From: Patescibacteria group bacterium
GTDB lineage: Bacteria > Patescibacteriota > Patescibacteriia > Patescibacteriales > GWC2-42-12
NCBI GenBank assembly: GCA_041662965.1
Contig: JBAZRI010000006.1
Span: 1 to 59,090 of the forward strand
Length of the DNA stretch: 59,090 bases
Reading direction: 5' to 3'
Shown: positions 1 through 53,571 of the stretch, piece by piece
Position numbering within the stretch: position 1 is the first letter of the stretch
Layout of the letters: every line of letters begins with the position of its first letter
The notes under the pieces: model-generated
What the model saw: only the letters and a program-made list of their open reading frames with translations
Told to the model about the DNA's origin: nothing
The model's database searches: none
Program-made: the position numbers and the translations under genes

Positions 1-271
1 TCAAATCAATATTGGCCGCGTTGACGTAAACCGTGCGGCCGTCGCGGATAGCTTCATAGCCGTCAACGATTAGAGACTGGGGCGAACCTTGGAGCTTCAG
101 ATTCTTTTTGTACCAGGTTAGAGGAGAGAAATGCCCCGGGTTGGGTAAAACGCGCAGGGCGATGGCGTCGGGAGAAAGGGGGGCGGCGAAGGTAAAATGA
201 GATAATAAAAAAACCGCTGTTAAAAATATTATCACGATAAATATTTTTTTAGCCGATTTATTAAATCTCAT
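1..271 (-). CDS. hypothetical secreted/membrane-anchored protein, truncated by window edge
   Basis: Hand translation: ATG at 271-269 on minus strand gives MRFNKSAKKIFIVIIFLTAVFLLSHFTFAAPLSPD..., open to position 1. Signal-like hydrophobic N-terminus. Absent from ORF track because there is no stop in the window. Confidence 0.4.
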   Translation of the reverse strand, partial: MRFNKSAKKIFIVIIFLTAVFLLSHFTFAAPLSPDAIALRVLPNPGHFSPLTWYKKNLKLQGSPQSLIVDGYEAIRDGRTVYVNAANIDL

Positions 272-279
272 ATAAAATT

Positions 280-1134
280 TTATTTTTGGCAGCGATCGCA
301 CCAATGGGTGCCTCGGCCGCCGAGTTTCATCTTTCTGACAATGCCGCCGCAATTTCTGCATTTCTCCCCTGCCCGGCCGTAAACTTGCAAATATTTTACA
401 AAATTTCCGGCTTGCCCTCGAGCATCTACGTAATCGTTAAATGAAGTGCCGCGATATTTTATGGCATAGCGCAATATTTTAGGAATCATCAGCCATAACT
501 TTTTTATTTCATCTGGCCTTAAAGTTTCCACCCGCCTAACAGGCTTAAGGCGCGCGGCGAAAAGAGCTTCATCGGCGTAAATATTGCCTATACCGGCGAT
601 ATATTTTTGGTCCAGCAAAAATTGTTTAATCGTGGTTTTTCGCTTATGGGTTAAAACTTGTTTAAAATATTTTAAAGTAAATTTCGGGCTTAACGGCTCT
701 ACTCCCAAACTCCGGCCAATGCTTTTTAATTCACCCAAGGAAACTAATTTTATCCAGCCAAATCTCCTGACATCGTTAAAATACAAAGCGCTTTTATCGT
801 TAAATCTAAAAATAACCCTGGTAAATTTATTAGGCAGCTCTTGAGCTTGATTTAAAATCGGGTGGCCGCCGGCGATTATTTTGGTTTTTATTTTATATAC
901 CAGCTGGCCGGTCATTTTAAGGTGGACTATTAAGCTTAACTCGCCCAAATCAATAATTATCATCTTGGCCCGGCGCTTAACCGCTTTGATTTTTTTGCCA
1001 ACCGCCTCCTTGATTTTTCCGCCGGACAGCTGAAAAACTTTATGATCAAGCGATTCAATACCGATAATTTTTTTATTTTTAAGTCCCCTGTTTAAATCGC
1101 GGACGATAGTTTCTACTTCCGGCAGCTCGGGCAT
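280..1134 (-). CDS. fpg: formamidopyrimidine-DNA glycosylase (Fpg/MutM)
   Basis: N-terminal MPELPEVE catalytic motif and C-terminal CxxC...CxxC zinc finger (CRNCGG...CDRCQ); length typical of the family. Confidence 0.9.
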   Translation of the reverse strand: MPELPEVETIVRDLNRGLKNKKIIGIESLDHKVFQLSGGKIKEAVGKKIKAVKRRAKMIIIDLGELSLIVHLKMTGQLVYKIKTKIIAGGHPILNQAQELPNKFTRVIFRFNDKSALYFNDVRRFGWIKLVSLGELKSIGRSLGVEPLSPKFTLKYFKQVLTHKRKTTIKQFLLDQKYIAGIGNIYADEALFAARLKPVRRVETLRPDEIKKLWLMIPKILRYAIKYRGTSFNDYVDARGQAGNFVKYLQVYGRAGEKCRNCGGIVRKMKLGGRGTHWCDRCQK

Positions 1135-1140
1135 AATTTT

Positions 1141-1335
1141 TAAATTTCTAATTACTCTAATTACTAATTAATCTAATTAAACCCCAATGTCCAAGCGCTA
1201 ATGTCCAATAAAATCTTAAGCCCCAAATCCTAATTTATTTTTTGGGATTTAAAATTTGGAATTTTTTTGGTCATTGGGTATTGGGATTTAGTCATTTATT
1301 AGAAATTAGATATTAGGAATTATAAATTATTAATT
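1141..1335. repeat. AT-rich long imperfect palindrome (ctaatt / ccaatg word family)
   Basis: Left arm ...atctaattaaaccccaatgtccaa... faces right arm ...ttggtcattgggtattggg...attagaaattag. Shares the string atctaattaaaccccaa with the element at 32012-32150. Confidence 0.6.
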
Positions 1336-1339
1336 TTGT

Positions 1340-1909
1340 TTACATAATGATCTCTCCTTCACAATTGTTCTTATCTATCCCGGCGGCGTTGGCTTCATCC
1401 GTATCAATATGCATGGCCAGCTTAAAATCCGGGCTGACTCTGACTAAAACATTTTCAAAAAGTAAATCACGTTCGCCGCTCGTGTCAACTTTAACGCGGT
1501 CATAATTTTTTACTCCAATTTCAGCGGCGGTCGCCGGATCAATATGGATATGCCTTAAAGCTAAAATCAAGCCCTGCTTTAATTCAAGCTGGCCGCGCGG
1601 ACCGATAACTTTAATGCCAGATGTTCCGACTAAATTACCCGAATCTCTAATCGGCGGCTCTAAGCCGAGCGCTTTAGCATCAGTTTCCGATACCTCTATT
1701 TGCGTTTCTTTGCGGCAGGGGCCAAGAATTCTGACTTTTTCTATCTCCCCTCTCGGGCCGATAAGCTTAACGGTTTCATTGGCCGCGAACTGCCCGGGCT
1801 GGGATAAATCTTTATATTTTGACAAGGCAAAGCCGGCGCCGAATAAAACGGCCGTATCTTCGCATGATAAATGAATGTGGCGAGCCGATATTTCAATAGG
1901 TACTTTCAT
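1340..1909 (-). CDS. pduL: phosphate propanoyl/acetyl-transferase PduL
   Basis: Two PduL-type repeats: VPIEISARHIHLS... and ALRHIHID...; DLSQPGQFAANETV motif. Confidence 0.85.
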   Translation of the reverse strand: MKVPIEISARHIHLSCEDTAVLFGAGFALSKYKDLSQPGQFAANETVKLIGPRGEIEKVRILGPCRKETQIEVSETDAKALGLEPPIRDSGNLVGTSGIKVIGPRGQLELKQGLILALRHIHIDPATAAEIGVKNYDRVKVDTSGERDLLFENVLVRVSPDFKLAMHIDTDEANAAGIDKNNCEGEIIM

Positions 1910-1923
1910 AATAATGCTATTGG

Positions 1924-2904
1924 TTAAAGGTCTTTTTTGCTTAATAAGCCGTTTTGCGCCCCGGGGATGCTAACTACCGAAGCGGCGTTTCTTGAAGCTA
2001 AATGCAAGGCTTTTTTTATGTCTTGCTTATATAATTCCAGTCCGGCGATAAAAGCCGAACCGAAAGAATCGCCCACTCCAGTGGTATCGGCGCGCTGTTT
2101 TTCTTTTATGATCGGCTGATGATAAATTTTATTTTCGCAAATCGCGTCGGCGCCGTCCCGTCCGCCGGTGATAACAACGATTTTAGGGCCGTAAGAACTT
2201 AGAGCCAAGAGCAAATTTTTTACATTATTTAAAAAGGCGCGGCTCTTAGTTTTATATTTTTTATCTGACATGACTAATTCTATGGCTTCGTCTTTATTAA
2301 CAATCAAGCAGGTTGTATTTTTAAAATATTTCCCGATGCCAGAGAGGCCGGTTAAAATCTGCCTATGTCCCGGGTTCCAGGCAATCTTTTCATTTTTCAC
2401 GGAGAAAATCTTTTCTAAATTTCTTTTCCATTCCCCGGATAAAGAGGTTAAATATATCCACTCGCTTTGATATAGAGTCTCAACTTCAAAATTATTAATG
2501 GTTAATTCGCTGTTGGCCGCGCGATTGGAAAAAACAATATGCTCGTTAGTCGGCCCGACCAATAAAAAAGAAAAGCCGGTCTCAATTTTTTTAACTTTTT
2601 GCACTAAAGTTATGTCAACGCCATGGGCTTGAAAATTATTTAAAATTCTTTGGCCGCGGGCGTCTTCGCCGATGGCCGAGAGGCAAGCCGCCTTAAAGCC
2701 GAAGCCGGACAAACAAACCGCGGCGTTAGCCGCGCCGCCGCCGAAACTGGAAAAAGACTTATCAACCTTAATTTTGGCGCCATATTCAAAAGCCAATAAT
2801 TTCTGCCGGGTCAAATCTTTCTTGTTGTTGATTAAAATACCTTCGCTGGTATAAAAAGTAATGTCCTCGGTCGCCCCGCCTATGGTTATAACATCGTATT
2901 TCAT
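1924..2904 (-). CDS. PfkB-family carbohydrate kinase
   Basis: Ribokinase-like signatures: GGAANAA near the N-terminus and DTTGVGDSFGSAF near the C-terminus. Confidence 0.8.
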   Translation of the reverse strand: MKYDVITIGGATEDITFYTSEGILINNKKDLTRQKLLAFEYGAKIKVDKSFSSFGGGAANAAVCLSGFGFKAACLSAIGEDARGQRILNNFQAHGVDITLVQKVKKIETGFSFLLVGPTNEHIVFSNRAANSELTINNFEVETLYQSEWIYLTSLSGEWKRNLEKIFSVKNEKIAWNPGHRQILTGLSGIGKYFKNTTCLIVNKDEAIELVMSDKKYKTKSRAFLNNVKNLLLALSSYGPKIVVITGGRDGADAICENKIYHQPIIKEKQRADTTGVGDSFGSAFIAGLELYKQDIKKALHLASRNAASVVSIPGAQNGLLSKKDL

Positions 2905-2945
2905 AGAAAAATTGTTAGTATTAATATATTTATATTATAACATAT

Positions 2946-2969
2946 AAAAACCCCCTTTAACAAAGGGGG
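2946..2969 (-). terminator. intrinsic terminator hairpin after galU
   Basis: ccccctttaacaaaggggg stem-loop, followed on the minus strand by a T-run. The same palindrome word recurs in frame at 5421-5439. Confidence 0.55.
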
Positions 2970-2991
2970 TAAATATAATTTAAGGATCGCA

Positions 2992-3858
2992 TTATTTCTT
3001 TAATAACTCTTTAGTAAATTTCTTTATCTCCGGGCCGATATCATCGCGGTCAAAAGCGTATTTCAGCATGGTCTTCATGTAATTAAGCGGGTCGCCGGTG
3101 GTCAGCCATTCGCCGCCCTGCACTTTTTTAGCGTAAAATTTACCGCCTTGCTTAACATACTGCTTAATAGCGTCAACTATCCAAAGTTCGTTGCCCTTAC
3201 CCAAAGGCAAATTTTTTAAAACATCCACGACATCCTGGTTTAAAATCATGCGGCCGAAATCGGCCAGGCGCGACGGCGCTTCTTTAACGCTCGGCTTTTC
3301 AACTATATCCTGAATCTGCATAGTGCCTTTTTTAACTTTAACGATGCCGTAGCGGACAACATCTTCTTTGCTCACTTCCTGCACGCCGATCATCAGATGG
3401 CCGGTTTTATTATAATCATCGGTCATCTGCTTGGCGAAAGGCACTTTTGATTTTACCAAATCATCGCCCCAAACGAACATAAACGGCTCGCCTTTGACAA
3501 GGCTGGCCGCGGATAAAACCGGCGTGCCGTTGCCGTACGGTCCTTTTTGCCTGACATAAATAAAATTGGCGAGGTTAGCTATTTTTTTTACCTCTTCCAT
3601 TAATTTATCTTTGCCGGCTTTTTTTAAATCATCAATCAGCGCCCAATTATAATCAAAATGGTCTTCCAAAGGCTTTTTATCCCATTTAGTGACTAAAATT
3701 ATATCCTCAATCCCGGCCGCCACTAATTCTTCAACCACTAACTGGATAATCGGCTTATCAACGATCGGCAGCATTTCTTTAGGCATGGCTTTAGTCGCCG
3801 GTAAGAGCCTAGTGCCCGAGCCGGCCACGGCCACGATAGCTTTTTTTATTTTTTGCAT
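2992..3858 (-). CDS. galU: UTP--glucose-1-phosphate uridylyltransferase
   Basis: N-terminal AVAGSGTRLLPATKAMPKEMLPIVDKP nucleotidyltransferase motif; length about 288 aa. Confidence 0.9.
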   Translation of the reverse strand: MQKIKKAIVAVAGSGTRLLPATKAMPKEMLPIVDKPIIQLVVEELVAAGIEDIILVTKWDKKPLEDHFDYNWALIDDLKKAGKDKLMEEVKKIANLANFIYVRQKGPYGNGTPVLSAASLVKGEPFMFVWGDDLVKSKVPFAKQMTDDYNKTGHLMIGVQEVSKEDVVRYGIVKVKKGTMQIQDIVEKPSVKEAPSRLADFGRMILNQDVVDVLKNLPLGKGNELWIVDAIKQYVKQGGKFYAKKVQGGEWLTTGDPLNYMKTMLKYAFDRDDIGPEIKKFTKELLKK

Positions 3859-3910
3859 AATATTAATTTATAATCAAAATATTTTTATCCCGCTAGCCGG
3901 AAAAAAGTTT

Positions 3911-4699
3911 TTAACTTATCCCCCATTTTTTTAAATATTTAAGCCAGGAAATTATATGATGCCAGGCAGTTAGGCTGGTAAAAAATTTATACCAGGCGAC
4001 GCGCGCGCTTTGCCGGGCATGATTATGGATAATCATGGCTTGCGGATTATAGACGACTTTCCAGCCGGCCTGCCAAAAACGCTTGCATAAATCAGTGTCC
4101 TCAAAATAAAGAAAAAACTTTTCATCGTACAGTCCGATTTGCCTAAAGGCCGAAGCGCGGCAGAACAAAAATGAGCCTAAAAGCCAATCCACTTCGCGCA
4201 GGCTGTCTTTATTATAATCCTTATATAAAAATCTGTCTAAATCTTTTTTGCCAAGTCCAATTTTCCCTAAAGGGGTGCGCCTGAAAAGCGGCGTCATTAA
4301 TCCGGGCCAGCGAAAGCAAGAAGCCTGGATAGTCTTATCAAGGTTAAATTGCTTAGGCCCAACTACACCGGCTCCGGGATTATTTTCCAGGTAATTAAAC
4401 AGCTTTAAAAAAACATCTTTGCCGGCCAAAGTATCCGGATTCATAATCACGATATACTTCCCTTGGGCGATCCTCGCGCCTTTATTATTAGCCGCGCCCA
4501 AGCCGATATTTTGGCCGTTCATGATAAATTTAATATCTCCGAATTGCTTTAAATCATCGCCTTTTAAATCGCCGGAATAATTATCTACGATTATAATTTC
4601 ATAAGCCAAGCCGGGCCAATCAGCTTGCCTGATAGACCGGACGCAGTTCAGAGTTAAATCTTTGGACTTATAATTTACTATAACGATGCTGATATCCAT
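3911..4699 (-). CDS. glycosyltransferase family 2
   Basis: ISIVIVNYKS start, DN/DxD region, GT-A fold pattern. Confidence 0.8.
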   Translation of the reverse strand: MDISIVIVNYKSKDLTLNCVRSIRQADWPGLAYEIIIVDNYSGDLKGDDLKQFGDIKFIMNGQNIGLGAANNKGARIAQGKYIVIMNPDTLAGKDVFLKLFNYLENNPGAGVVGPKQFNLDKTIQASCFRWPGLMTPLFRRTPLGKIGLGKKDLDRFLYKDYNKDSLREVDWLLGSFLFCRASAFRQIGLYDEKFFLYFEDTDLCKRFWQAGWKVVYNPQAMIIHNHARQSARVAWYKFFTSLTAWHHIISWLKYLKKWGIS

Positions 4700-4708
4700 A
4701 ATAAAAAA

Positions 4709-5797
4709 TTACCACGCAATTAAAAACCTTACTGCCCGCCAATATATATTAAAAACCACGTTGGAAATCTCCAGCTGCTTGCTGTTAATCTCTTGATACC
4801 AGATCCTGCCGGAAAATAATTTTACTATATCTTTGTCTTTAACTTGCCTTAATTTTTGAACCCGTTCGCGGGCTTGCCTGATATAGCGCCAATTTTTTAA
4901 GCTTAAAAAATATTTGTAAACCCCGAGCTTTTCCTTAAACCAGCCTTTGCGCGCGGCAAAAAATAATAAGCCGAGTTCCATGGCAACCAGCGCGGGAAAA
5001 ATCAATATTAAAGTAAATAAATGATAATTTTTCAGCATGGCGATAAGGCGATTGCGGTCCATCCAATAATATTTTTTAATGCTGCGGGAAAACTCGTATT
5101 TATGGTAAACCACGGCTTCGCGCGCCAAAATACACTTAAAGCCGGCCAGCCATAGCCGCCAGCCCAGATCCTGATCTTCATTATACATCCAAAATTCCTC
5201 ATCAAACAAGCCGACTTTTTCTAAGGCCTCGCGCTTAAATAAAACCGCCGCGCCGGACGGGTAGCAAATTTCATTTGTCATTTGGTCTTTTTTATCCGCC
5301 ATTTCTTCTCCATAGCCTTGGCTATACCCGAAACCCAAAAAATGCGTAATATTGCCTAAGCTGTTTATTTTATTTTTATCGCTATAAAGCATTAATCTCG
5401 CCTGCACCGCGCCGATTTTACCCCCTTTAGCAAAGGGGGCTAGAGGGATTCTATTTTCTTCTGCTTCTCGCACCATCTTCCCGACGCAATCCGCCTCTAA
5501 AACCGTATCCATATTGAATAAAATCACGTAGTCAAATCCCCGCTCTAGCGCTAATTTCATGCAATCATTATTCCCTTTGGCAAACCCGCCATTATTTTTA
5601 TTTCTGATTATTTCCGCTTCCGGCGCCGCTCGCTTTAAAAAATCATAGCTTTCTTCCGTGCTTTCATTGTCAGTTATAAAAATTTTCATTTCGCCAGCGT
5701 AAGCCTGCTTTTTTATGCTAGCGGCACATTCCGCCAAATATTTTTCGGCGTAATCTTTATAATTCGGACTGATTATTATGGCAACTTTTTTATTCAT
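4709..5797 (-). CDS. glycosyltransferase family 2 with C-terminal membrane segment
   Basis: GT2 N-terminal pattern (VAIIISPNY...ITDNEST), NEDQDLGWR motif, hydrophobic C-terminal helix. Confidence 0.8.
   Translation of the reverse strand: MNKKVAIIISPNYKDYAEKYLAECAASIKKQAYAGEMKIFITDNESTEESYDFLKRAAPEAEIIRNKNNGGFAKGNNDCMKLALERGFDYVILFNMDTVLEADCVGKMVREAEENRIPLAPFAKGGKIGAVQARLMLYSDKNKINSLGNITHFLGFGYSQGYGEEMADKKDQMTNEICYPSGAAVLFKREALEKVGLFDEEFWMYNEDQDLGWRLWLAGFKCILAREAVVYHKYEFSRSIKKYYWMDRNRLIAMLKNYHLFTLILIFPALVAMELGLLFFAARKGWFKEKLGVYKYFLSLKNWRYIRQARERVQKLRQVKDKDIVKLFSGRIWYQEINSKQLEISNVVFNIYWRAVRFLIAW
5421..5439. repeat. in-frame copy of ccccctttaNcaaaggggg palindrome inside the GT2 gene
   Basis: ccccctttagcaaaggggg encodes ...APFAKGG... 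in the 4709-5797 protein; near-identical palindrome at 2951-2969 is intergenic. Confidence 0.6.
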
Positions 5798-5829: not shown

Positions 5830-6681
5830 TTATTCCAGCGGACTTACTATCTCTCTTAATTTATTATTCGCCACTTTGGTATAGATCTGCGTGGTTTCCA
5901 GCCGCGCGTGGCCCAATAGCTCCTGTATATACCTTATATCAGTTCCGCTTTCAAGTAAATGAGTGGCGAAACTGTGGCGCAGGCTATGCGCGGATATATT
6001 GGGCTTTACTTTAGCCAAGCGCGCCGCCTCGCCCACTATTTTTTGAATTGTGCGCACGGTTAATTTTGTTCCGGCGGGCTGGCTTTCAAATAAAAAAGTC
6101 AGCGGCTGATATTCCAGTAAATATTTTTCAATATTTCTTAAAGTCTGATCGGAAACTATCGTTATCCTGTCTTTGGCGCCTTTGCCATGCCTGACCGTAA
6201 TAATCCTGCGGAAAAAATCAATATCATTGATTTTCAGATCAACCGCTTCGCTGACTCGGAGCCCTGAACCGAATAATATTTGGATCATCAATTTATGCTT
6301 AATATTATCCAAAACGTTTATCATCATTACTACTTCATTTTTACTAAGCACAACCGGAAGCTTTTTTTCGCTTTTTGGCCGCTTAATTCCGATTTTTGAA
6401 ATAAAAAAACTCCTTTGCAATACGCCTTCGTAATAAAATTTGAAAGAATTGATGGCTAAATTAACGGTTGATGATGATTTACCGAGATTAAACAAACAAT
6501 CAATATAATCCCGCAAGTCTTCGGAGTTTATCTCTCTCGGGCTTTTATTTGCAAATCTAAGCAATTCTTTGTTATAATAAAGATAAGCTTGAATAGTTTT
6601 CGGGCTGAAATTGCGTATCCTCATTTCCCGAGCTAAATTAAACATCGGATCCTTGCTTGGATATTGATAATTTCCGTTCAT
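5830..6681 (-). CDS. tyrosine recombinase, IntI-like termini but Xer-sized (candidate cassette-array integrase)
   Basis: R...HxxR...Y catalytic set (GLRVSE, HSLRHSFATHLL, LGHARLETTQIYTKV). SAM-like N-domain (FSPKTIQAYLYYNKELLRF). C-terminal ...REIVSPLE resembles the IntI tail ...VRSPLD. The segment between GKGAKDR and HSLRH is only about 60 aa. Confidence 0.85.
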   Translation of the reverse strand: MNGNYQYPSKDPMFNLAREMRIRNFSPKTIQAYLYYNKELLRFANKSPREINSEDLRDYIDCLFNLGKSSSTVNLAINSFKFYYEGVLQRSFFISKIGIKRPKSEKKLPVVLSKNEVVMMINVLDNIKHKLMIQILFGSGLRVSEAVDLKINDIDFFRRIITVRHGKGAKDRITIVSDQTLRNIEKYLLEYQPLTFLFESQPAGTKLTVRTIQKIVGEAARLAKVKPNISAHSLRHSFATHLLESGTDIRYIQELLGHARLETTQIYTKVANNKLREIVSPLE

Positions 6682-6747
6682 AAACGGTTCTGGTTAGAAA
6701 TTTATATTATAATTTTAACTAATTTTAAATAATTAATCAACAAGTTC

Positions 6748-6767
6748 GCATATAACTAGTTATACGC
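6748..6767. other. attI-like core: near-perfect 20-bp palindrome ending in the first GTTATAC box
   Basis: gcatataactagttatacgc (18/20 self-complementary), readable as 7-bp inverted arms around ACTAGT. Lies 67 bp from the recombinase start, at the left boundary of cassette 1. Confidence 0.45.
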
Positions 6768-6874
6768 CATTTTGAAAAGCCCCCTTTATTTTTTTAATAA
6801 TTTTGGCAATTCTTTTTGGGGTCGAAGTATAACTGGAATTTATAGATAAGTATTAATAAATTAATATTAAAATT

Positions 6875-7321
6875 ATGAAAGAACCAACAATGCCAGGGAT
6901 GGAAAATAAAGGAGAGAAAAAATCCTGGGAAGATTTATCAAAAGTAGAAAAAACAGCTGAAGGTTATAAAGCTAACAGTAGATTTATTAGATATGAAATC
7001 TTAAAACAGTTAGGAGAGCAAATGGTAAATATGGCTGAAACATTTAAAGATGAAAGAACCTCAATGGACGAGAAGGCTAATGGATTGCATATAACTGACA
7101 GAGTACATGTTCAAATTCCAATGGATGAAAAATATTCTCTTGGAAATAATTTTAGTTTAAAAGAATTTGAATCTTTCGATCTAAATTTACCTGAAAGATT
7201 TATTAAGTTTATTGAAAGCGGACAATTAGACGAAATTGGATTCGAAAACGAGGCTGGTTACAAGGTTAGCGCTACCCTAGAAGGTGATAATTTAATTATA
7301 AAAAATGAAGGAGCTTTCTAA
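6875..7321 (+). CDS. hypothetical protein (cassette 1)
   Basis: 148-aa ORF with no motif I recognise; acidic, no TM segment; flanked by the 54-nt inverted repeat 6759-6812 / 7325-7378. Confidence 0.55.
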   Translation: MKEPTMPGMENKGEKKSWEDLSKVEKTAEGYKANSRFIRYEILKQLGEQMVNMAETFKDERTSMDEKANGLHITDRVHVQIPMDEKYSLGNNFSLKEFESFDLNLPERFIKFIESGQLDEIGFENEAGYKVSATLEGDNLIIKNEGAF

Positions 7322-7371
7322 AATGAATTGCCAAAATTAAATACACTAATGTAGGGGCTTTTCAAAACAGC

Positions 7372-7568
7372 GCATAACAACGCATATCTGGCTACGGGAA
7401 AATCACTCAAATATATTCAAAGGATGTGATTTTCCCTCCGCCCAAATTTTCATCCCTTAGTTTCGATGAAGATTTAGGTGGAGATAATTAAACAAAGCAT
7501 TTTCTGAAATCAAAGGTTCATCCTGTTAAATCGGGATGAAAACTTCAGATGATGCGTGAACGTTAGAC
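7372..7568 (+). other. attC-like site 1 (long, about 197 bp)
   Basis: R'' GCATAAC, 2-nt spacer, cgcatatctg ... cagatgatgcg, 5-nt spacer (tgaac), R' GTTAGAC. The interior holds three local hairpins (gggaaaatcac/gtgattttccc; ttcatc/gatgaa; tctgaa..ttcatcc/ggatgaa..ttcaga). Confidence 0.6.
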
Positions 7569-7604
7569 GAAATTTATTTTTAATTCCCTTTAATACTTAC
7601 GCTT

Positions 7605-8192
7605 ATGAAAATAGCAATCATATCAGACATTCACGACAACTTTCATAATATTATTCTGACCTTGAAAGATATTAAAAAGCGAAAGGTCGATCAAATTATT
7701 TTTCTTGGCGATTTTATCAATAACGGAATAGCCAAGGTTCTTGCGGAATCACCAATTCCAATTTTTGCCATTTGGGGAAATAATGATGGTGATAAAACAA
7801 TGATTACCAAAACATCGCTGAGTGAAAAAAGTAATTTAACCGTAAGTGAAAATATTTACGATTTTTTGGAGTTTGATAACAGAAAAATTTTTATAACCCA
7901 TTATCCAGATTTGGCTAAGCCAATGGCAAAAACTGGAATTTACGACGCAGTATTTTATGGGCATAATCATTTGAAAAACGAAGATAAAATCGGCGACTGT
8001 TTAGTAGTTAACCCTGGTGAGATATCTGCCCACAAAACTGGTGTGGCAACTTTTGTGATTTACGATACCAAGAAAAATAATATTGATTTCATTGAGTTGA
8101 AAAACTCCGTGACTTGGAAAACGAAAGTTGTCGATGAATATATAAAAACTTCCACGTTTAAATTTAGTAAGTCTAAACGCCACCAGTATTAA
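7605..8192 (+). CDS. YfcE/MJ0936-type metallophosphoesterase (cassette 2)
   Basis: MKIAIISDIHDN..., GDFINNG, WGNNDGD, GHNH motifs of calcineurin-like phosphoesterases. Confidence 0.8.
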   Translation: MKIAIISDIHDNFHNIILTLKDIKKRKVDQIIFLGDFINNGIAKVLAESPIPIFAIWGNNDGDKTMITKTSLSEKSNLTVSENIYDFLEFDNRKIFITHYPDLAKPMAKTGIYDAVFYGHNHLKNEDKIGDCLVVNPGEISAHKTGVATFVIYDTKKNNIDFIELKNSVTWKTKVVDEYIKTSTFKFSKSKRHQY

Positions 8193-8334
8193 AGGGAATT
8201 AAAAATAAACTCAAGGGGGGCGCTGCGCTTTTGCCCCGCTCATTATTAATAAATTCACATATAGGAAAGCGGGGCAAACCCTCGCCTAACAACGCGATAA
8301 GCGGAAAAGTCCTCAGCTCGGACTTTTCGCAAAT

Positions 8335-8363
8335 TTGACTTATTTTTTATTTAACAGTAAAAT
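8335..8363 (+). promoter_or_regulatory. sigma70-like promoter for hicBA
   Basis: TTGACT (8335-8340), 17 nt, TAAAAT (8358-8363), 21 nt upstream of the hicB ATG; overlaps the inner inverted repeat. Confidence 0.45.
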
Positions 8364-8384
8364 AACTGCATAAACTATAAAAAT

Positions 8385-8603
8385 ATGCGTAAAATAGACC
8401 TAAAATCAGTAGTTTGGAAAGAGGGCAAACATTATGTTTCTCAATGTTTAGAAGTTGACGTTTCCAGCTTCGGAAAAACCAAAAAAGAAGCCTTAGCTAT
8501 GCTACAAGAAGCATTGCAATTATATTTTGAAGATATTCCTGTTCCAAAAATGGCTGAGGTAAAAAATCCGATTATCGCTTCGGTTAAGCTTCAATATGCC
8601 TAA
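8385..8603 (+). CDS. hicB: HicB-family antitoxin
   Basis: 72 aa. The WKEGKHYVSQCLEVDVSSFGKTKKEALAMLQEALQLYFE pattern is typical of HicB/UPF0150. Overlaps the downstream toxin gene by 8 nt. Confidence 0.75.
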   Translation: MRKIDLKSVVWKEGKHYVSQCLEVDVSSFGKTKKEALAMLQEALQLYFEDIPVPKMAEVKNPIIASVKLQYA

Positions 8604-8817
8604 ACCTTATCCACTTCGACTCATACTGAAAGTCCTTCTTAACAAGGGCTTCTTTTTTGTTTCACAAAATGGCTCGCACGCTAAGTATCGTTGTCATCAC
8701 AACCCAGAATTAACCGTCATTATTCCAATGCACGGCAAAGAAGTGCTTTATGGCACTTTTAGGTCTATTTTACGCCAAGCAAAATTACAGCTTAGCGATT
8801 TTGATAATAAAAAATAA
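8596..8817 (+). CDS. hicA: HicA-family mRNA interferase toxin
   Basis: 73 aa; LLNKGFFFVSQNGSHAKYR...IIPMHGKEVLYGTFRSILRQA matches the HicA/YcfA pattern including the catalytic His region. Confidence 0.75.
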   Translation: MPKPYPLRLILKVLLNKGFFFVSQNGSHAKYRCHHNPELTVIIPMHGKEVLYGTFRSILRQAKLQLSDFDNKK

Positions 8818-8875
8818 GTCAAACTTCGCTTATCGGTATACGTTAGGCGAAATAAAAAAACAAATTATAAAATAT

Positions 8876-9247
8876 ATGGAAAAACCAATTTATGAACATC
8901 CTGAGGATACCGCATCGGATTTGATGAAAAATGATTATCTAAACGAATATCTTACATTTAATAGGCTACTTTACGATGAAGGCAGCAAATATAAAAAACC
9001 GCCTCTTGCTCCGAGAGGTTTTTCTCAAAGATATCCAAATATGACATTCAGCGGCCTGCCTTTTAAGATTTCAGAAATAGATAGACAAAAAATTGAAGAA
9101 CTAGATAAATTGTCTGTCGAGGCTAATCGTTTATTAAATGAAACGCCTTCAGACACAAATGCGCTATTAAAAATAGTTATTCTGGTTGCAGAAATATGCG
9201 GCAGGCCTGACTTTGCAAATAACTTTAGGGGAGGTGCCAAGGAATAA
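8876..9247 (+). CDS. hypothetical protein (cassette 3)
   Basis: The track ORF 8750-9247 runs across hicA and the GTTAGGC core. The internal ATG at 8876 (MEKPIYEHPED...) lies just inside the cassette boundary, so it is taken as the start. Confidence 0.5.
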   Translation: MEKPIYEHPEDTASDLMKNDYLNEYLTFNRLLYDEGSKYKKPPLAPRGFSQRYPNMTFSGLPFKISEIDRQKIEELDKLSVEANRLLNETPSDTNALLKIVILVAEICGRPDFANNFRGGAKE

Positions 9248-9263
9248 TTTGTTTTTTTACATC

Positions 9264-9350
9264 GCCTAACACGCGATATCCGCAAGAGCTAAAGCCACAT
9301 TTCAATTTGCTTCGCTTCATTGAAATGTCGGATATCGCGAAACGTTAAGT
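9264..9350 (+). other. attC-like site 3 (canonical size, 87 bp)
   Basis: R'' GCCTAAC, ac, gcgatatccg, bulge, acatttcaat/attgaaatgt stem, cggatatcgc, gaaac, R' GTTAAGT. Unequal spacers (2 vs 5 nt), as in attC sites. Confidence 0.7.
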
Positions 9351-9382
9351 GAAATTTTAAAGAAATATTTTTGTTATTTTAC

Positions 9383-9530
9383 AAAAAAACGACCTCTTTT
9401 GTGGGTGGGTCGTCATAGCTTCATTGAAGCAACCTCTGTTTTTTTACGAAGCTAGCCCTTCCCCTAGATTTAACCGGTGAATCCAGAGGCAATCCGACCT
9501 CCTCGGACGGCTAACTTTTCCGAGTATTTA
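9383..9530 (-). ncRNA. candidate about 145-nt structured RNA in ORF-less cassette 4
   Basis: Minus strand: TTGACA (9563-9558), 17 nt, TAAATT (9540-9535) upstream. Intrinsic terminator acgacc...ggtcgt plus U-run at 9413-9383. Internal stems uccga/ucgga, ccucug/cagagg, gcuuc/gaagc. No ORF of 40 aa or more. Confidence 0.3.
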
Positions 9531-9595
9531 TAATAATTTATATTATCCATTATAAAATGTCAAGATTTAATATATACAAAAATATTTCTTTAAAA

Positions 9596-9667
9596 CTCAG
9601 AGGGTCGCTGCGCTTTCTTTTGCCCCTATATTTTAGTATAATTACATTAAGAAATTACAAGCCTAAA
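9596..9667 (+). other. degenerate terminal attC remnant / shared pre-R'' module
   Basis: ctcagagggtcgctgcgctttcttttgcccc... ends in GCCTAAA. The first about 30 nt match 8210-8238 (ctcaaggggggcgctgcgcttttgcccc), which precedes GCCTAAC at 8284. No downstream GTTRRRY partner was found. Confidence 0.4.
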
Positions 9668-9704
9668 TAACCGGTAATTTTTATAAACTAGAAAAAAATA
9701 TCTG

Positions 9705-9944
9705 ATGAAAAATATACAGCATTATTCTAAAGAATCTTGGCCAAGGTCGCTAACAAAAATGATCACTTATAGAATAGCCATTCTTATCCTTGATTTTACC
9801 ATCGTCTATTTACTGACGGGAAAAATTGAGATTGCTTTAGGCTTTATGGTAGCCAGCAATATTTACACCAGCATAGGCTATTACATCCACGAAAGAGCCT
9901 GGGATCGCGTCAAATGGGGAAAAATCAAGCAGGCTAAAAAATAA
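9705..9944 (+). CDS. DUF2061-like small membrane protein
   Basis: 79 aa, two TM helices, HERAWDRVKWG C-terminal motif. Confidence 0.55.
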   Translation: MKNIQHYSKESWPRSLTKMITYRIAILILDFTIVYLLTGKIEIALGFMVASNIYTSIGYYIHERAWDRVKWGKIKQAKK

Positions 9945-9973
9945 CAGCGCTCTTTAATTATTAAACAAAAAAT

Positions 9974-11068
9974 ATGAAAAAAATTAATATCGGCATACTG
10001 TTTGGCGGTAAATCCGCCGAACACGAAGTCTCTCTGCAGTCGGCAAAAAATATTTTTGAAGCGATTGATAAAAAAAAATACAATCCTATTTTAATCGGCA
10101 TTGATAAATCCGGCAAATGGCTGTTAAGCGACAGCTCTAAATTCCTGCTTAACGCGGACAACCCCAAATTAATAAGGCTCAATCAAGCCAGCGACCACGT
10201 GGCTTTAGTGCCTCAAAGCGGCGGCAAAATATCAAATTTATTCCACAAAGGCAAGAAAAAATCCATTGACGTCATTTTCCCGATCTTGCACGGCCCTTTC
10301 GGCGAAGACGGCACGGTCCAAGGCTTATTAAAGCTCGCTAATATTCCTTTCGTCGGCGCCAGCGTTCTAGGCTCGGCGGTCGGCATGGATAAAGACGTAA
10401 TGAAGCGCTTATTGCGCGACGCCGGCCTGCCTATCGGAAAATTTATCACTCTCAATTCAGGCGATAAAATTCCCGGATATAAAACCATCGCGGAAAAAAT
10501 CGGCATGCCCTGCTTCATAAAACCGGCTAACATGGGCTCGTCGGTCGGCGTGAGTAAAGTCAATAGCCAAGGCGAATATTTAAAGGCCATAAAAAACGCC
10601 TGGCAATATGACACAAAAATTTTAATAGAAGAATATATCAAGGGCAGAGAAATTGAATGTTCGGTTTTAGGCAACGCCAACCCTATCGCCTCCGTACCCG
10701 GCGAAGTGACCCCCAGCCATGAATTTTATTCTTATGAAGCCAAATATCTTGATGAAAAAGGCGCGATTTTAGAAATTCCCGCAAAACTGCCCAGCCAAAC
10801 CATAAAAAAAATCCAGGCTTTAGCCGTAAAAACGTTTAAAACTTTATCTTGCGAAGGTCCGGGCCGAGTTGACTTTTTTCTCAAAAAAAACGGGGATATC
10901 ATCGTCAACGAGATTAATACCATGCCGGGCTTTACAAAAATAAGCATGTATCCGAAATTATGGGAAGCCAGCGGCATAGCTTATGCCGAGCTGATTGACA
11001 AATTAATTCAACTAGCAATTGAAAGATTTAACAAAGAGCAAAATTTAAAAACAAATTACGTTAAATAA
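9974..11068 (+). CDS. ddl: D-alanine--D-alanine ligase
   Basis: GILFGGKSAEHEVSL N-terminus, ATP-grasp core, EINTMPGFT C-terminal motif. Confidence 0.92.
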   Translation: MKKINIGILFGGKSAEHEVSLQSAKNIFEAIDKKKYNPILIGIDKSGKWLLSDSSKFLLNADNPKLIRLNQASDHVALVPQSGGKISNLFHKGKKKSIDVIFPILHGPFGEDGTVQGLLKLANIPFVGASVLGSAVGMDKDVMKRLLRDAGLPIGKFITLNSGDKIPGYKTIAEKIGMPCFIKPANMGSSVGVSKVNSQGEYLKAIKNAWQYDTKILIEEYIKGREIECSVLGNANPIASVPGEVTPSHEFYSYEAKYLDEKGAILEIPAKLPSQTIKKIQALAVKTFKTLSCEGPGRVDFFLKKNGDIIVNEINTMPGFTKISMYPKLWEASGIAYAELIDKLIQLAIERFNKEQNLKTNYVK

Positions 11069-50822: not shown

Positions 50823-52172
50823 ATGAATAATAAACTTAAAAAACTAGTTTTGCTCGGCGGGGACATAGCCGTCCTCTATTTTTCCTTGTATTTGACTTTA
50901 GTAATCAGATATTTAAGCGACTACCAAGCTAAAACCTGGGCGGCGCATTTCTGGCCGTTCACGGCTATTTTTATTTTATGGCTGATCATTTTTTATATCT
51001 CTAATCTATATAACCTGAATTTAGCCGTAAACAATATAAAATTTTACCAATCAAGCGGACGCGCCCTGATTATCGCCGGCCTGGCCTCGCTTACTTTCTT
51101 TTATTTAATGCCGCGAATCGGCATCGCGCCGAAAACCAATTTATTCATATATATCATAGTTTTCGCGGTTATTTTTTATCTTTGGCGCCAATTCTATAAT
51201 TATTCGCTAAAATCATACCTGCCTAAAAGAAATATCGGCATCGTCGGCTATAATAATTTAGTGGCGGAAATTATCAACGAGTTCAGGCAAAAGCCCCATC
51301 TAGGCTATAATCTAAGCTTTATAGTTGACGACAGCGGCGAAAAGCAGGCGGCCGGCATCAGACCGATTACCGACTTGGAAGTATTGCTGGCTGAAAATAA
51401 ATTGGATACGGTTATTTTATCTTCCGACCCGCACCGGTCGGAAAATCTGCGCGCTGTTTTATTCAATTCGCTTTACCGCCGGATAAATTATGTCAGCCTG
51501 CCTAATTTCTACGAAGCCATAACCGGCAAGGTCCCGCTGGATTCGGTTAACCAAATGTGGTTTTTAGAAAACTTAAGCGAAAGCAATAAAATCTGGTTTA
51601 ACCGCCTAAAAATAATTTATGATTTCATTATCGCTCTGGCGATTTTTATTATTACTCTGCCCTTCTGGATTATTATCGCCGTAATAATTAAACTAGAGAG
51701 TCCCGGACCGATATTTTTTATTATGAACCGGGCCGGACAAAATAATAAAGTATTCAAGTTGATAAAATTCAGAACCATGAGAGAAAAAAATAATGATTAC
51801 GCGCCGACCCGAGCGAACGATCCCCGCATAACTAAGTTCGGCGGATTTCTAAGAAAAACCAGGCTTGATGAATTGCCCCAAGTTATTAATATACTGAAAG
51901 GCGAAATGAGCTTCGTCGGGCCCCGCCCGGAGCGGCCGGAGCTGATCCTTGAGCTTGAAAAGCAAATCCCCTTCTATGGCCAAAGAACTTTAGTCAAGCC
52001 CGGCCTGACCGGCTCGGACCAGATTTCCGGCGAATATCATTCGCCGTCGCGCGAAGACAGCTTAAAAAAATTGCAATACGATCTCTTCTATATAAAAAAC
52101 CGATCTTTATTTTTAGACCTGTCCATTATTTTAAAAACCGTCGCCACGGTAATTTCCAGAGGCGGCATGTAA
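50823..52172 (+). CDS. polyprenyl-phosphate hexose-1-phosphate transferase (WbaP/PglC-type sugar transferase)
   Basis: N-terminal TM bundle, C-terminal Bac_transf motifs PGPIFF...KFRTM...DELPQ...GEMSFVGPRP. Confidence 0.85.
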   Translation: MNNKLKKLVLLGGDIAVLYFSLYLTLVIRYLSDYQAKTWAAHFWPFTAIFILWLIIFYISNLYNLNLAVNNIKFYQSSGRALIIAGLASLTFFYLMPRIGIAPKTNLFIYIIVFAVIFYLWRQFYNYSLKSYLPKRNIGIVGYNNLVAEIINEFRQKPHLGYNLSFIVDDSGEKQAAGIRPITDLEVLLAENKLDTVILSSDPHRSENLRAVLFNSLYRRINYVSLPNFYEAITGKVPLDSVNQMWFLENLSESNKIWFNRLKIIYDFIIALAIFIITLPFWIIIAVIIKLESPGPIFFIMNRAGQNNKVFKLIKFRTMREKNNDYAPTRANDPRITKFGGFLRKTRLDELPQVINILKGEMSFVGPRPERPELILELEKQIPFYGQRTLVKPGLTGSDQISGEYHSPSREDSLKKLQYDLFYIKNRSLFLDLSIILKTVATVISRGGM

Positions 52173-52497: not shown

Positions 52498-52527
52498 AGC
52501 GTGATTAAGCTCGCGCTTTTTTATTTT

Positions 52528-53571
52528 ATGAGCACAAAAAAAGCATTAATCACCGGCATAACCGGCCAAGACGGCAGCTATCTGGCAGAGCTGCTTTTAG
52601 AAAAAGGCTATGAAGTGCATGGCATAATCAGACGCGCCAGCACTTTTAACACCGAAAGGATTGACCACTTATATAAAGACCCGCATATTAACGGCGTGCA
52701 CCTTTTTCTGCATTACGGCGATTTATCCGACGGCAGTAACTTAAACCGCATTTTAGAAAAAATCAGCCCGGATGAAATTTATCATCTAGGAGCGCAAAGC
52801 CATGTCCGGGTAAGCTTTGACCTGCCGGAATATACGGGCGATATCAGCGGACTGGGAACGGTAAGGCTGTTAGATGCCATCAGAGATACTGAAATAAAAA
52901 CTAAATTTTACCAAGCCTCGTCAAGCGAGATGTTCGGCTTAGTTGATAAACTGCCGATTACCGAAGCCACGCCCTTCCATCCCCGCTCGCCTTACGCCTG
53001 CGCCAAAGTTTACGCTTATTGGATAACTAAAAATTACCGCGAAGCTTATAATTTATACGCCACCAACGGCATCTTATTCAACCACGAAAGCCCGCGCCGC
53101 GGCGAAACTTTCGTCACCAGAAAAATTACTCGCGGCCTGGCCAGGATTAAATTAGGTTTGGATGAAAAATTATTCCTCGGCAATTTAGACGCTAAGCGCG
53201 ATTGGGGCTATGCCAAAGATTTTGTCTATGGCATGTGGCTAATGCTCCAGCAAGACAAACCGGATGATTATATTTTAGCCACTAACGAAACTCATGATGT
53301 TAAAGAGTTCGTAAATAAAACCGCTGAAACTTTAGGCATGGAAATCACCTGGCAGGGCCAAGGGTTAGAAGAAATTGGCGTAGACAAAAAAACCGGCAAA
53401 ACAATTATTGAAATAGACCCGAAATATTTCCGGCCGTCCGAAGTGCCGATACTGCTCGGCGACTATGCCAAAGCCAAAACTGAACTCGGCTGGGAGCCGA
53501 AAGTTAAATTCACGGAACTGGTAAAAATCATGGCCGAAGCGGATTTTGAAAAAGAGAAAGCAAAACTATAA
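52528..53571 (+). CDS. gmd: GDP-mannose 4,6-dehydratase
   Basis: Start set to [32 protein letters not shown]; [10 protein letters not shown] (YxxxK); NHESPRRG. Confidence 0.92.

Follow-up and report, generated by a model that had tools for sequence, protein, structure and literature searches.

A XerA-sized tyrosine recombinase without the I2 insertion adjoins attC-like cassette arrays in Patescibacteria and is a likely integron-type integrase

The recombinase gene, its attI-like core and the adjoining array

The DNA analysed here is a stretch of 59,090 nt (the window, taken at its full length) from a groundwater genome of the Patescibacteria (candidate phyla radiation, CPR). It carries a gene for a simple tyrosine recombinase and, on its other side, an array of small cassettes that end in sites resembling the attC sites of integrons (Table 1). 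The link between recombinase and array is not due to chance, and the comparative anatomy of the loci makes it likely that the enzyme is the integrase of an integron-type gene-capture platform widespread in Patescibacteria, of XerA size and lacking the I2 helix.

The encoded protein has a Phage_integrase catalytic domain (Pfam PF00589, 8e-41) and an N-terminal SAM_4 domain (1.5e-15). All six catalytic residues (R142, K170, H232, R235, H258 and Y267) are present and align with those of IntI1 and IntI4 (MAFFT alignment A1), and the R-K-H-R-H-Y set is invariant across 40 homologues save for the lysine K170, which is kept in 90% or more. The window and related loci have the conserved core AAGTTCGCATATAACTWG+TT some 63 nt ahead of the gene; in 13 of 16 loci its distance to the start codon is 63 nt. 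From the core the array runs divergently from the gene. Similarity between related loci ends at G|TT; the crossover would fall between G6759 and T6760. The left half of the core is kept across genomes and the right half varies with the first cassette. There is a single copy of the core in the window, with 0 expected by chance, and scanning metagenome contigs with its 20 nt yielded 58 further loci (L022-L079). The leader between gene and core probably houses the recombinase promoter; a promoter scan found a minus-strand promoter-like match at 6740-6712, but such matches are not above chance here.

Could this adjacency be incidental, with the attC-like sites recombined by another enzyme, for example a canonical IntI encoded elsewhere? 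Cury (2016) found that a recombinase close to attC sites is generally not IntI if it lacks the additional domain of integron integrases, and the core occurs without the gene in some loci. On the other side, more than 30 further, independent loci, with protein identity as low as 52%, repeat the order of gene, 63-nt leader, core and array. No other tyrosine recombinase open reading frame (ORF) was found in the window, nor within up to 10 kb on either side in L001-L013 and L016-L021, and the nearest relatives of the protein (the best 150 clusters described below) all lack the insertion. We therefore regard an incidental arrangement as very improbable. The initial annotation had considered the case that the enzyme recombines the adjacent sites, and comparison of many independent genomes supports a tie between the two; from the same anatomy we infer that this enzyme catalyses recombination at them.

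Table 1. Features of the recombinase locus and cassette array in the window
Feature	Position	Strand	Description
Recombinase gene	5830-6681	minus	283 aa, ATG start; simple tyrosine recombinase, SAM_4 N-domain
Leader	6682-6741		...ttttaactaattttaaat...; between gene and core; position and sequence kept in related loci
attI-like core	6742-6765	plus	AAGTTCGCATATAACTAG+TTATAC; double-strand core, two inverted half-sites ..TATAAC / GTTATA..
Cassette 1	6760-7562	plus	ORF 6875-7321 (148 aa, no Pfam match) and attC_1; inverted-repeat ends 6750-6783 / 7354-7387
attC_1	7367-7573	plus	207 nt; model score 69.1 bits; R'' GCATAAC 7372-7378, L'' GCATATCTG, L' CAGATGATGC with one bulged G, R' GTTAGAC 7562-7568, then GAAAT
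Cassette 2	7563-8842	plus	metallophosphoesterase ORF 7605-8192, 75-nt element 8209-8283, attC_2
attC_2	8284-8848	plus	565 nt; two halves matched separately by the covariance model; 8284 onward: R'' GCCTAAC, L'' CGATAAGCG(G); 8828-8848: L' CGCTTATCG, R' GTTAGGC
Cassette 3	8843-9344	plus	ORF 8870-9247 (125 aa, no Pfam match); 27-nt inverted-repeat ends 8842-8868 / 9244-9270
attC_3	9259-9355	plus	97 nt with flanks; model score 75.4 bits; R'' GCCTAAC 9264-9270, L stem GCGATATCCG / CGGATATCGC, R' GTTAAGT 9344-9350, then GAAAT
Distal remnant	9345-9651	plus	probable end of array; no ORF; inverted repeat 9355-9374 / 9576-9595; truncated 75-nt element 9596-9651
DUF2061 gene	9705-9944		past the array
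ddl	9974-11068		past the array

The recombinase between IntI and Xer

It had been noticed from the letters of the sequence alone that only about 60 residues separate GKGAKDR from HSLRHSFAT, and that the IntI-specific insertion seemed to be missing. GKGAKDR occupies residues 166-172 and HSLRHSFAT starts at 232, which leaves 59 residues between them; the equivalent spacing is 100 in IntI1 and 101 in VchIntIA (IntI4), 60 in Pyrococcus XerA, and 62 and 66 in E. coli XerC and XerD. Alignment to known integrases was a check named beforehand; A1 opens gaps of 32 + 10 columns in the window protein and three homologues where IntI1 and IntI4 carry ...ALPDALERKYPRAGHSWPW... and ...HTHSTDPRSG.... The roughly 42 residues that are absent are the IntI additional domain (ALERKYP / I2 helix). 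For these comparisons the IntI1 sequence was confirmed as 100% identical to plasmid intI1, VchIntIA was taken from PDB 2a3v, and the XerC and XerD sequences pass their own NCBIfam equivalog cut-offs.

Searches against structures agree. With phmmer against PDB, IntI4 (2a3v) matches in two pieces (query 17-180 to IntI4 10-173, and 210-282 to 245-317), and XerA (4a8e) in a single collinear stretch. The AlphaFold (AF2) model (pLDDT 80) has a helix at 178-191, short strands and a helix at 209-223, with the extra helix absent; Foldseek places it closest to XerA 5hxy (6e-17, about 276 columns), followed by IntI4 2a3v (3.5e-16, 308-321 columns) and XerA 4a8e (4.4e-16). Alignment, hidden Markov models (HMMs) and predicted structure bear out the absence of the insertion that the initial annotation had suspected. 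Among the matches listed (about 120, at 61-85% identity) all homologues are roughly 270-295 aa long. In a library of 1.8 billion proteins, the best 150 of 2957 representative clusters (E <= 1e-30) each give one collinear match of about 270 aa; therefore the insertion is absent from all 150. On these comparisons the missing insertion is a family trait and not a local deletion. The family is very large, and its named members belong to Patescibacteria (Falkowbacteria, Parcubacteria, Moranbacteria).

In other respects the protein resembles IntI, and the IntI-like N-domain and C-terminal tail first read from the sequence both hold. The N-domain scores 57.8 bits on SAM_4 versus 23 bits on SAM_1, where IntI1/IntI4 reach 97-104 bits on SAM_4 and XerC/D 92-94 bits on SAM_1. 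The motifs LPVVLS, KHKL and DIDF are IntI-like, and the tail EIVSPLE compares with GVRSPLD in IntI1 and GVLSPLS in IntI4. The NCBIfam IntI model TIGR02249 gives the protein 215.8 bits in two pieces, below the cut-off of 265 and about 95 bits higher than XerC (121.6) and XerD (118.7); on the IntI model PRK15417 it scores 142 bits, under the cut-off of 435. The intI_Cterm profile of IntegronFinder is expected to miss it, because the region which that profile models is absent from the protein. A neighbour-joining tree over 270 columns, which is small, distance-based and thinly sampled and was treated as a lead only, separates the two XerA proteins, XerC and XerD from IntI1, IntI4 and the family in 100% of 300 bootstraps. 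It groups the protein with IntI1/IntI4 and does not set it firmly inside a housekeeping Xer clade. Several measures, then, place the family between XerA and IntI, far from XerC/D, and judged by its sequence the protein is IntI-like except for the absent insertion.

The attC-like sites and the cassettes

The sites share a common plan, ACATC-R''(NNNTAAC)-2/3 nt-L''...L'-5/6 nt-R'(GTTRNNN)-GAAAT, in which the top-strand L'-R' arm invariably exceeds the R''-L'' arm by about 3 nt and in many cases has one bulged base. They are conserved in structure rather than in sequence. In alignment A3, made of 17 sites from nine loci, 84.3% of the cells of the R + L structure are paired, compared with 74.1% in column shuffles (0 of 500 reach the observed value) and 25-38% in a control with slid partners; pairs changed on both sides number 7 of 11 in the L stem and 10 of 20 overall. 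For attC_3 as single-stranded DNA the folding energy is -19.1 kcal/mol (z = -4.0). Used by itself, RNAalifold found the L stem and missed the R stem, because R' in the array belongs to the next cassette, as the analysis of cognate ends described below indicates.

The covariance model R1, built on A3 and applied at E < 0.01, finds 25 matches in the window and L001-L021, of which 17 are training sites, and 42 more in L022-L079. All 67 lie on the array side of the recombinase gene and on the cassette strand; there are none in the other 52 kb of the window and none in loci of unrelated recombinases. Curated sites and this model replaced a home-made finder based on regular expressions and stems, which was useless (45 matches versus 44 in shuffled sequence). 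The centre of nearly all A3 sites consists of two hairpins joined by a conserved CCCAAAT(T), for example at window 7449-7457, and AACTTCG precedes L'; this conserved centre suggests an extra protein-binding or three-way-junction feature.

Signs of cassette mobility are found at several levels. The start of a cassette (R' + GAAAT + 15-22 nt) is an inverted repeat of its own end (... + ACATC + R''), with a median of 25 of 36 in-register matches between cognate ends versus 14.4 +/- 4 between non-cognate ones. In its variable triplet R' agrees with the R'' at the end of its own cassette and not with those of neighbouring cassettes, as a crossover at G|TT predicts. Downstream of the recombinase the order GT2-GT2-NTP_transferase-PfkB-...-Fpg is shared by the window, L016/17, L018, L020 and partly L021, but the arrays of these syntenic genomes are wholly different and hold mainly small ORFs without Pfam matches. 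All that the arrays share is the attI region, attC sites (L020 has one 83% identical to attC_1) and a few cassette starts, at differing array positions. A 92% identical copy of 7560-8212 from cassette 2 stands behind a different attC in another groundwater sample and has its own R'' GTCTAAC, complementary to its GTTAGAC start, and in groundwater assemblies a diverged start of cassette 1 follows an attC_2-type R'. In the metagenome attC_1 has 3-4 times the depth of its flanks, and public groundwater contigs break at attC sites. From the Logan contigs only alternative continuations at attC boundaries were kept; apparent joints on 20-30 nt of low-complexity sequence (e.g. 6871 to 9968) were left unused.

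Very many contigs stop no more than a few hundred bases away from the core (L003, L006, L007, L009, which ends inside it, L012, L018 and many of L022-L079). Arrays that act as assembly breakpoints imply heterogeneity at strain level or repeats, and also that such platforms are under-represented in metagenome-assembled genomes.

In the window and in many other loci, every cassette is bracketed by inverted repeats of 25-34 nt that reach beyond the R boxes, with a fixed 2-nt mismatch (GAAAT versus ACATC). They extend the R stem only in the circular form: reconstituted as a circular junction, cassette 3 folds into a long rod of -38.8 kcal/mol, compared with -19.8 in the array context. Classical integron cassettes are not known to have such extended inverted repeats.

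Hairpins of this kind might also be transcription terminators, regulatory RNAs or elements similar to repetitive extragenic palindromes (REP) in a hypervariable island that happens to adjoin a Xer gene. Their stability and the conserved central motif CCCAAAT fit with such a role, and the repeats flanking the cassettes could work at the RNA level. Elements of that sort would nevertheless leave the features just described without explanation: the R' triplet pairs with R'' of its own cassette and not with those of neighbours, the junction with the core is base-precise at G|TT, the same cassette or attC turns up in differing arrays and positions, the logic of folded half-sites mirrors the core, and no Rfam family matches. 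We find this explanation hardly credible.

Several further observations concern individual cassettes. A perfect 25-nt inverted repeat (7573-7597 / 8185-8209) brackets the metallophosphoesterase ORF of cassette 2. Within the attC_2 hairpin, between L'' and L', lies a toxin-antitoxin pair, HicB-like (DUF7387) at 8385-8603 and HicA at 8596-8817, around which runs another inverted repeat, of 21 nt (8331-8351 / 8806-8826). In L021 a long attC of 451 nt (L021:5976-6426) likewise encloses an ORF, of 107 aa. An alternative L'/R' partner for attC_2 at 8568-8589, in the hicB-like ORF, was put down to chance, as the flanking consensus is absent and the model misses it. The 75-nt element (ctcaagggg.cgctgcgcttt-hairpin-aaccctc) stands directly 5' of some R'' boxes, in the window as well as in L001 (two copies) and L011, and has no Rfam match; the truncated copy at 9596-9651 runs on into a full attC in other contigs of the same metagenomes. 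The distal 'cassette' is non-coding and contains a minus-strand promoter-like match, TTGACA-17-TAAATT, at 9563-9535. Its region 9375-9560 (minus), taken as RNA, folds at -49.7 kcal/mol (z = -2.6 versus shuffles) with a terminal hairpin followed by a T-run, and may encode a small RNA; it has no Rfam match, and an Rfam scan of the array gave no meaningful match.

The guanine-cytosine (GC) content is 33-35% in the array (6-10 kb) and about 40% for the window. Elsewhere in the window (1-5797 and 12614-58849) cell-envelope and sugar genes predominate, namely several GT2 glycosyltransferases, NTP-transferase, PfkB, GDP-mannose dehydratase and sugar transferase, as well as ddl. A replication origin near the site was considered for ORFs 50823-52172 and 52501-53571, guessed to be dnaA and dnaN, and dropped, as by Pfam they are sugar transferase and GDP-mannose dehydratase.

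Proposed integron-type gene capture without I2, and comparison with known systems

A number of points weigh against an integron-type integrase. The protein scores 242 bits on NF040815 (recomb_XerA_Arch), over the cut-off of 220; that model is itself unspecific, because E. coli XerD scores 219.4, almost at the cut-off (XerC 205.5, IntI4 191.5). An HMM built from 40 family members rates XerA (201 and 181 bits) about equal to IntI (IntI4 190, IntI1 170), with XerD at 127 and XerC at 124, and in the small tree the family is monophyletic to the exclusion of IntI in only 30% of bootstraps. Messier & Roy (2001) and MacDonald (2006), as cited in other papers, deem the additional domain necessary for IntI activity. 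Cury (2016), whose IntegronFinder applies this domain as a filter, states that recombinases adjoining attC sites without it 'are not IntI', and Smyshlyaev (2021, PMC8138268) sees the Xer-like enzymes of candidate phyla as probable substitutes for Xer. No circular cassette junction was seen in the assembled Logan contigs. Among about 38 metagenomic loci whose flanks are long enough, 14 have the exact core with no recombinase gene next to it. In four more (L037, L051, L065 and L071) the core is intact but only a truncated N-terminal piece of the gene (HMM positions about 1-75) is left alongside, and these look like decayed platforms.

The gene-less exact cores (L022, L039, L047, L055, L057, L058, L060, L062, L064 and L078) have housekeeping genes as neighbours, such as a methyltransferase, YchF and MreB, and in L058 an FtsK carrying a gamma domain. 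The model detects no attC in most of these loci. L022 and L062 have the same sequence to the right of the core and unlike left flanks.

It might be, then, that the enzyme is primarily a Xer recombinase for chromosome dimer resolution, a single recombinase of 'Cand' or XerA-like type comparable to XerS/difSL and XerH/difH, with the core as its dif and the cassettes as passengers resembling integrative mobile elements exploiting Xer (IMEX). Such an enzyme would account for the XerA_Arch score, the XerA size and the XerA protein as best structural match, for a dif-like core of two inverted half-sites, for the exact core alone beside unrelated housekeeping genes including ftsK, and for a gene in a conserved chromosomal neighbourhood, about 60-85% conserved across lineages; it also accords with what the literature presumes of candidate-phyla Xer-like enzymes (PMC8138268). 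Several observations count against this reading. Genes and GC skew are divergent from it (minus strand to the left, plus strand to the right) in all but 2 of the 23 loci with usable flanks, and convergent, as at a terminus, in none, with the reservation that short-range skew is confounded by gene strand. Across the 59-kb window the site marks no inflection of GC skew, which is negative to its left and to its right. The right half-site differs freely from one genome to the next, in the tree the family falls with IntI and not with XerA/XerCD, and the truncated genes beside the core in four loci mean that this copy is dispensable there. All in all we consider a primary role in dimer resolution unlikely, though it deserves to be kept in mind. 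It overlaps with the integron-type explanation, from which it differs in primary function and in the selection that acts on the gene; if it is right, the enzyme would still recombine hairpin sites. An additional housekeeping role of the enzyme is possible.

For an integron-type integrase the following mechanism may be proposed. The 283-aa recombinase, transcribed divergently from the attI-like core TTCGCATATAAC-TW-GTTRNNNGAAAT, would insert cassettes, mostly with one small co-oriented ORF, at G|TT of the core. The attC-like site at the cassette end would fold as a single strand. R'' and R' would pair as the R stem, followed by an internal loop with arms of unequal length (2-3 nt against 5-6 nt, L' often carrying one bulged base), by the L stem and, in the middle, by a structured region. 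In this fold the R stem would reproduce one half-site of the core and the L stem (..GATAAG.. / ..CTTATC..) a degenerate second one. Since such a fold would mimic the two half-sites of the attI core, an enzyme of XerA size could dispense with the I2 helix in binding it; XerCD binds the folded CTX-phage site in a comparable way. The bulged and unpaired bases would give the hairpin an asymmetry that could guide strand choice, again without I2. In double-stranded attC, L' and R' are 3 bp further apart than the corresponding elements of the core, which would keep the site inactive until folded, and the stability of the rod formed by the circular junction suggests that attI would recombine preferentially with the excised circle. 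On the model of integrons and of CTX phage with XerCD (PMC4792948), one strand would be exchanged and replication would resolve the junction. We infer the single-stranded substrate, the reacting strand and the resolution by replication alike.

The additional domain with its I2 helix is treated as a defining, necessary feature of integron integrases, and experimental evolution work (PMC4792948, PMC7790495) presents the gain of I2 as the step that opened single-strand recombination. If our interpretation is correct, there is a second way to recognise folded sites. A gene-capture mechanism of integron type would then exist in the ultra-small genomes of CPR bacteria, thought to lack integrons and in which current software reports none, and surveys would miss such platforms systematically, labelling them CALIN (clusters of attC sites without an integrase) or nothing. 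They would also provide a concrete candidate for the ancestral state of integrons. More speculatively, and as a possibility that we hold only tentatively, these platforms may be a living 'pre-I2' integron, canonical integrases having arisen within this radiation by gaining the insertion. This would correspond to the hypothetical Xer-like intermediate of Escudero et al. (2016, PMC4792948), who speculated on a Xer-like ancestor with IMEX-like proto-cassettes. Literature searches on integrons in Patescibacteria, CPR or Parcubacteria and on integron-like hairpin cassette systems found no description of such platforms, and papers beyond those searched may exist.

The system can be compared with several known ones. 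With the integrons of IntI1 and VchIntIA/IntI4 it has in common an integrase gene divergent from the array with an attI-type core adjoining it, a crossover at G|TT of a GTTRRRY-like box, and mostly single co-oriented ORFs ending in imperfect R''-L''...L'-R' palindromes conserved in structure. A toxin-antitoxin pair within the array and a protein with SAM_4 N-domain, LPVVL, KH.L and DIDF motifs and SPL(D/E) tail are further likenesses. It differs in that the enzyme lacks the additional domain of about 40 residues (I2 helix, ALERKYP) and stays under the cut-offs of TIGR02249 and PRK15417, that the attC sites have a conserved three-part centre with CCCAAAT, and that inverted repeats of 25-33 nt at the cassette ends make the R stem longer in the circular form alone. 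Genes lie inside some of the attC hairpins, the arrays are short, with 1-6 sites, and the genomes are very small.

Archaeal XerA (Pyrococcus 4a8e, Thermoplasma 5hxy) is alike in length, domain layout and collinear alignment (37% and 35% identity), gives the top Foldseek matches, and is likewise a single-recombinase system whose XerA_Arch cut-off the window protein passes. In contrast to XerA, the Patescibacteria enzyme has an IntI-type SAM_4 N-domain and groups with IntI in the small tree, and beside its gene lies a point of cassette insertion with hairpin sites beyond it rather than a lone dif at the terminus. In the IMEX strategy of CTX phage, XerCD acts on folded single-stranded phage DNA at dif, with exchange of one strand and resolution of the junction by replication (PMC4792948). 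This is a precedent for a recombinase without I2 acting on a folded hairpin that mimics a double-strand core. However, the phage hijacks a two-enzyme host system at the terminus and its stem has no extrahelical bases (PMC4792948), and CTX has neither arrays of promoterless cassettes nor a dedicated recombinase gene next to them.

The protein very probably belongs to the 'Cand' subgroup of simple tyrosine recombinases (Smyshlyaev et al. 2021, PMC8138268), which are Xer-related and come from candidate phyla; for that subgroup the same paper names no target site or cassette array and presumes Xer-like housekeeping. Finally, standard software would probably label these arrays as CALIN, as the integrase would fail intI_Cterm, whereas in most of the loci described here a conserved recombinase gene and an attI-like core head the array.

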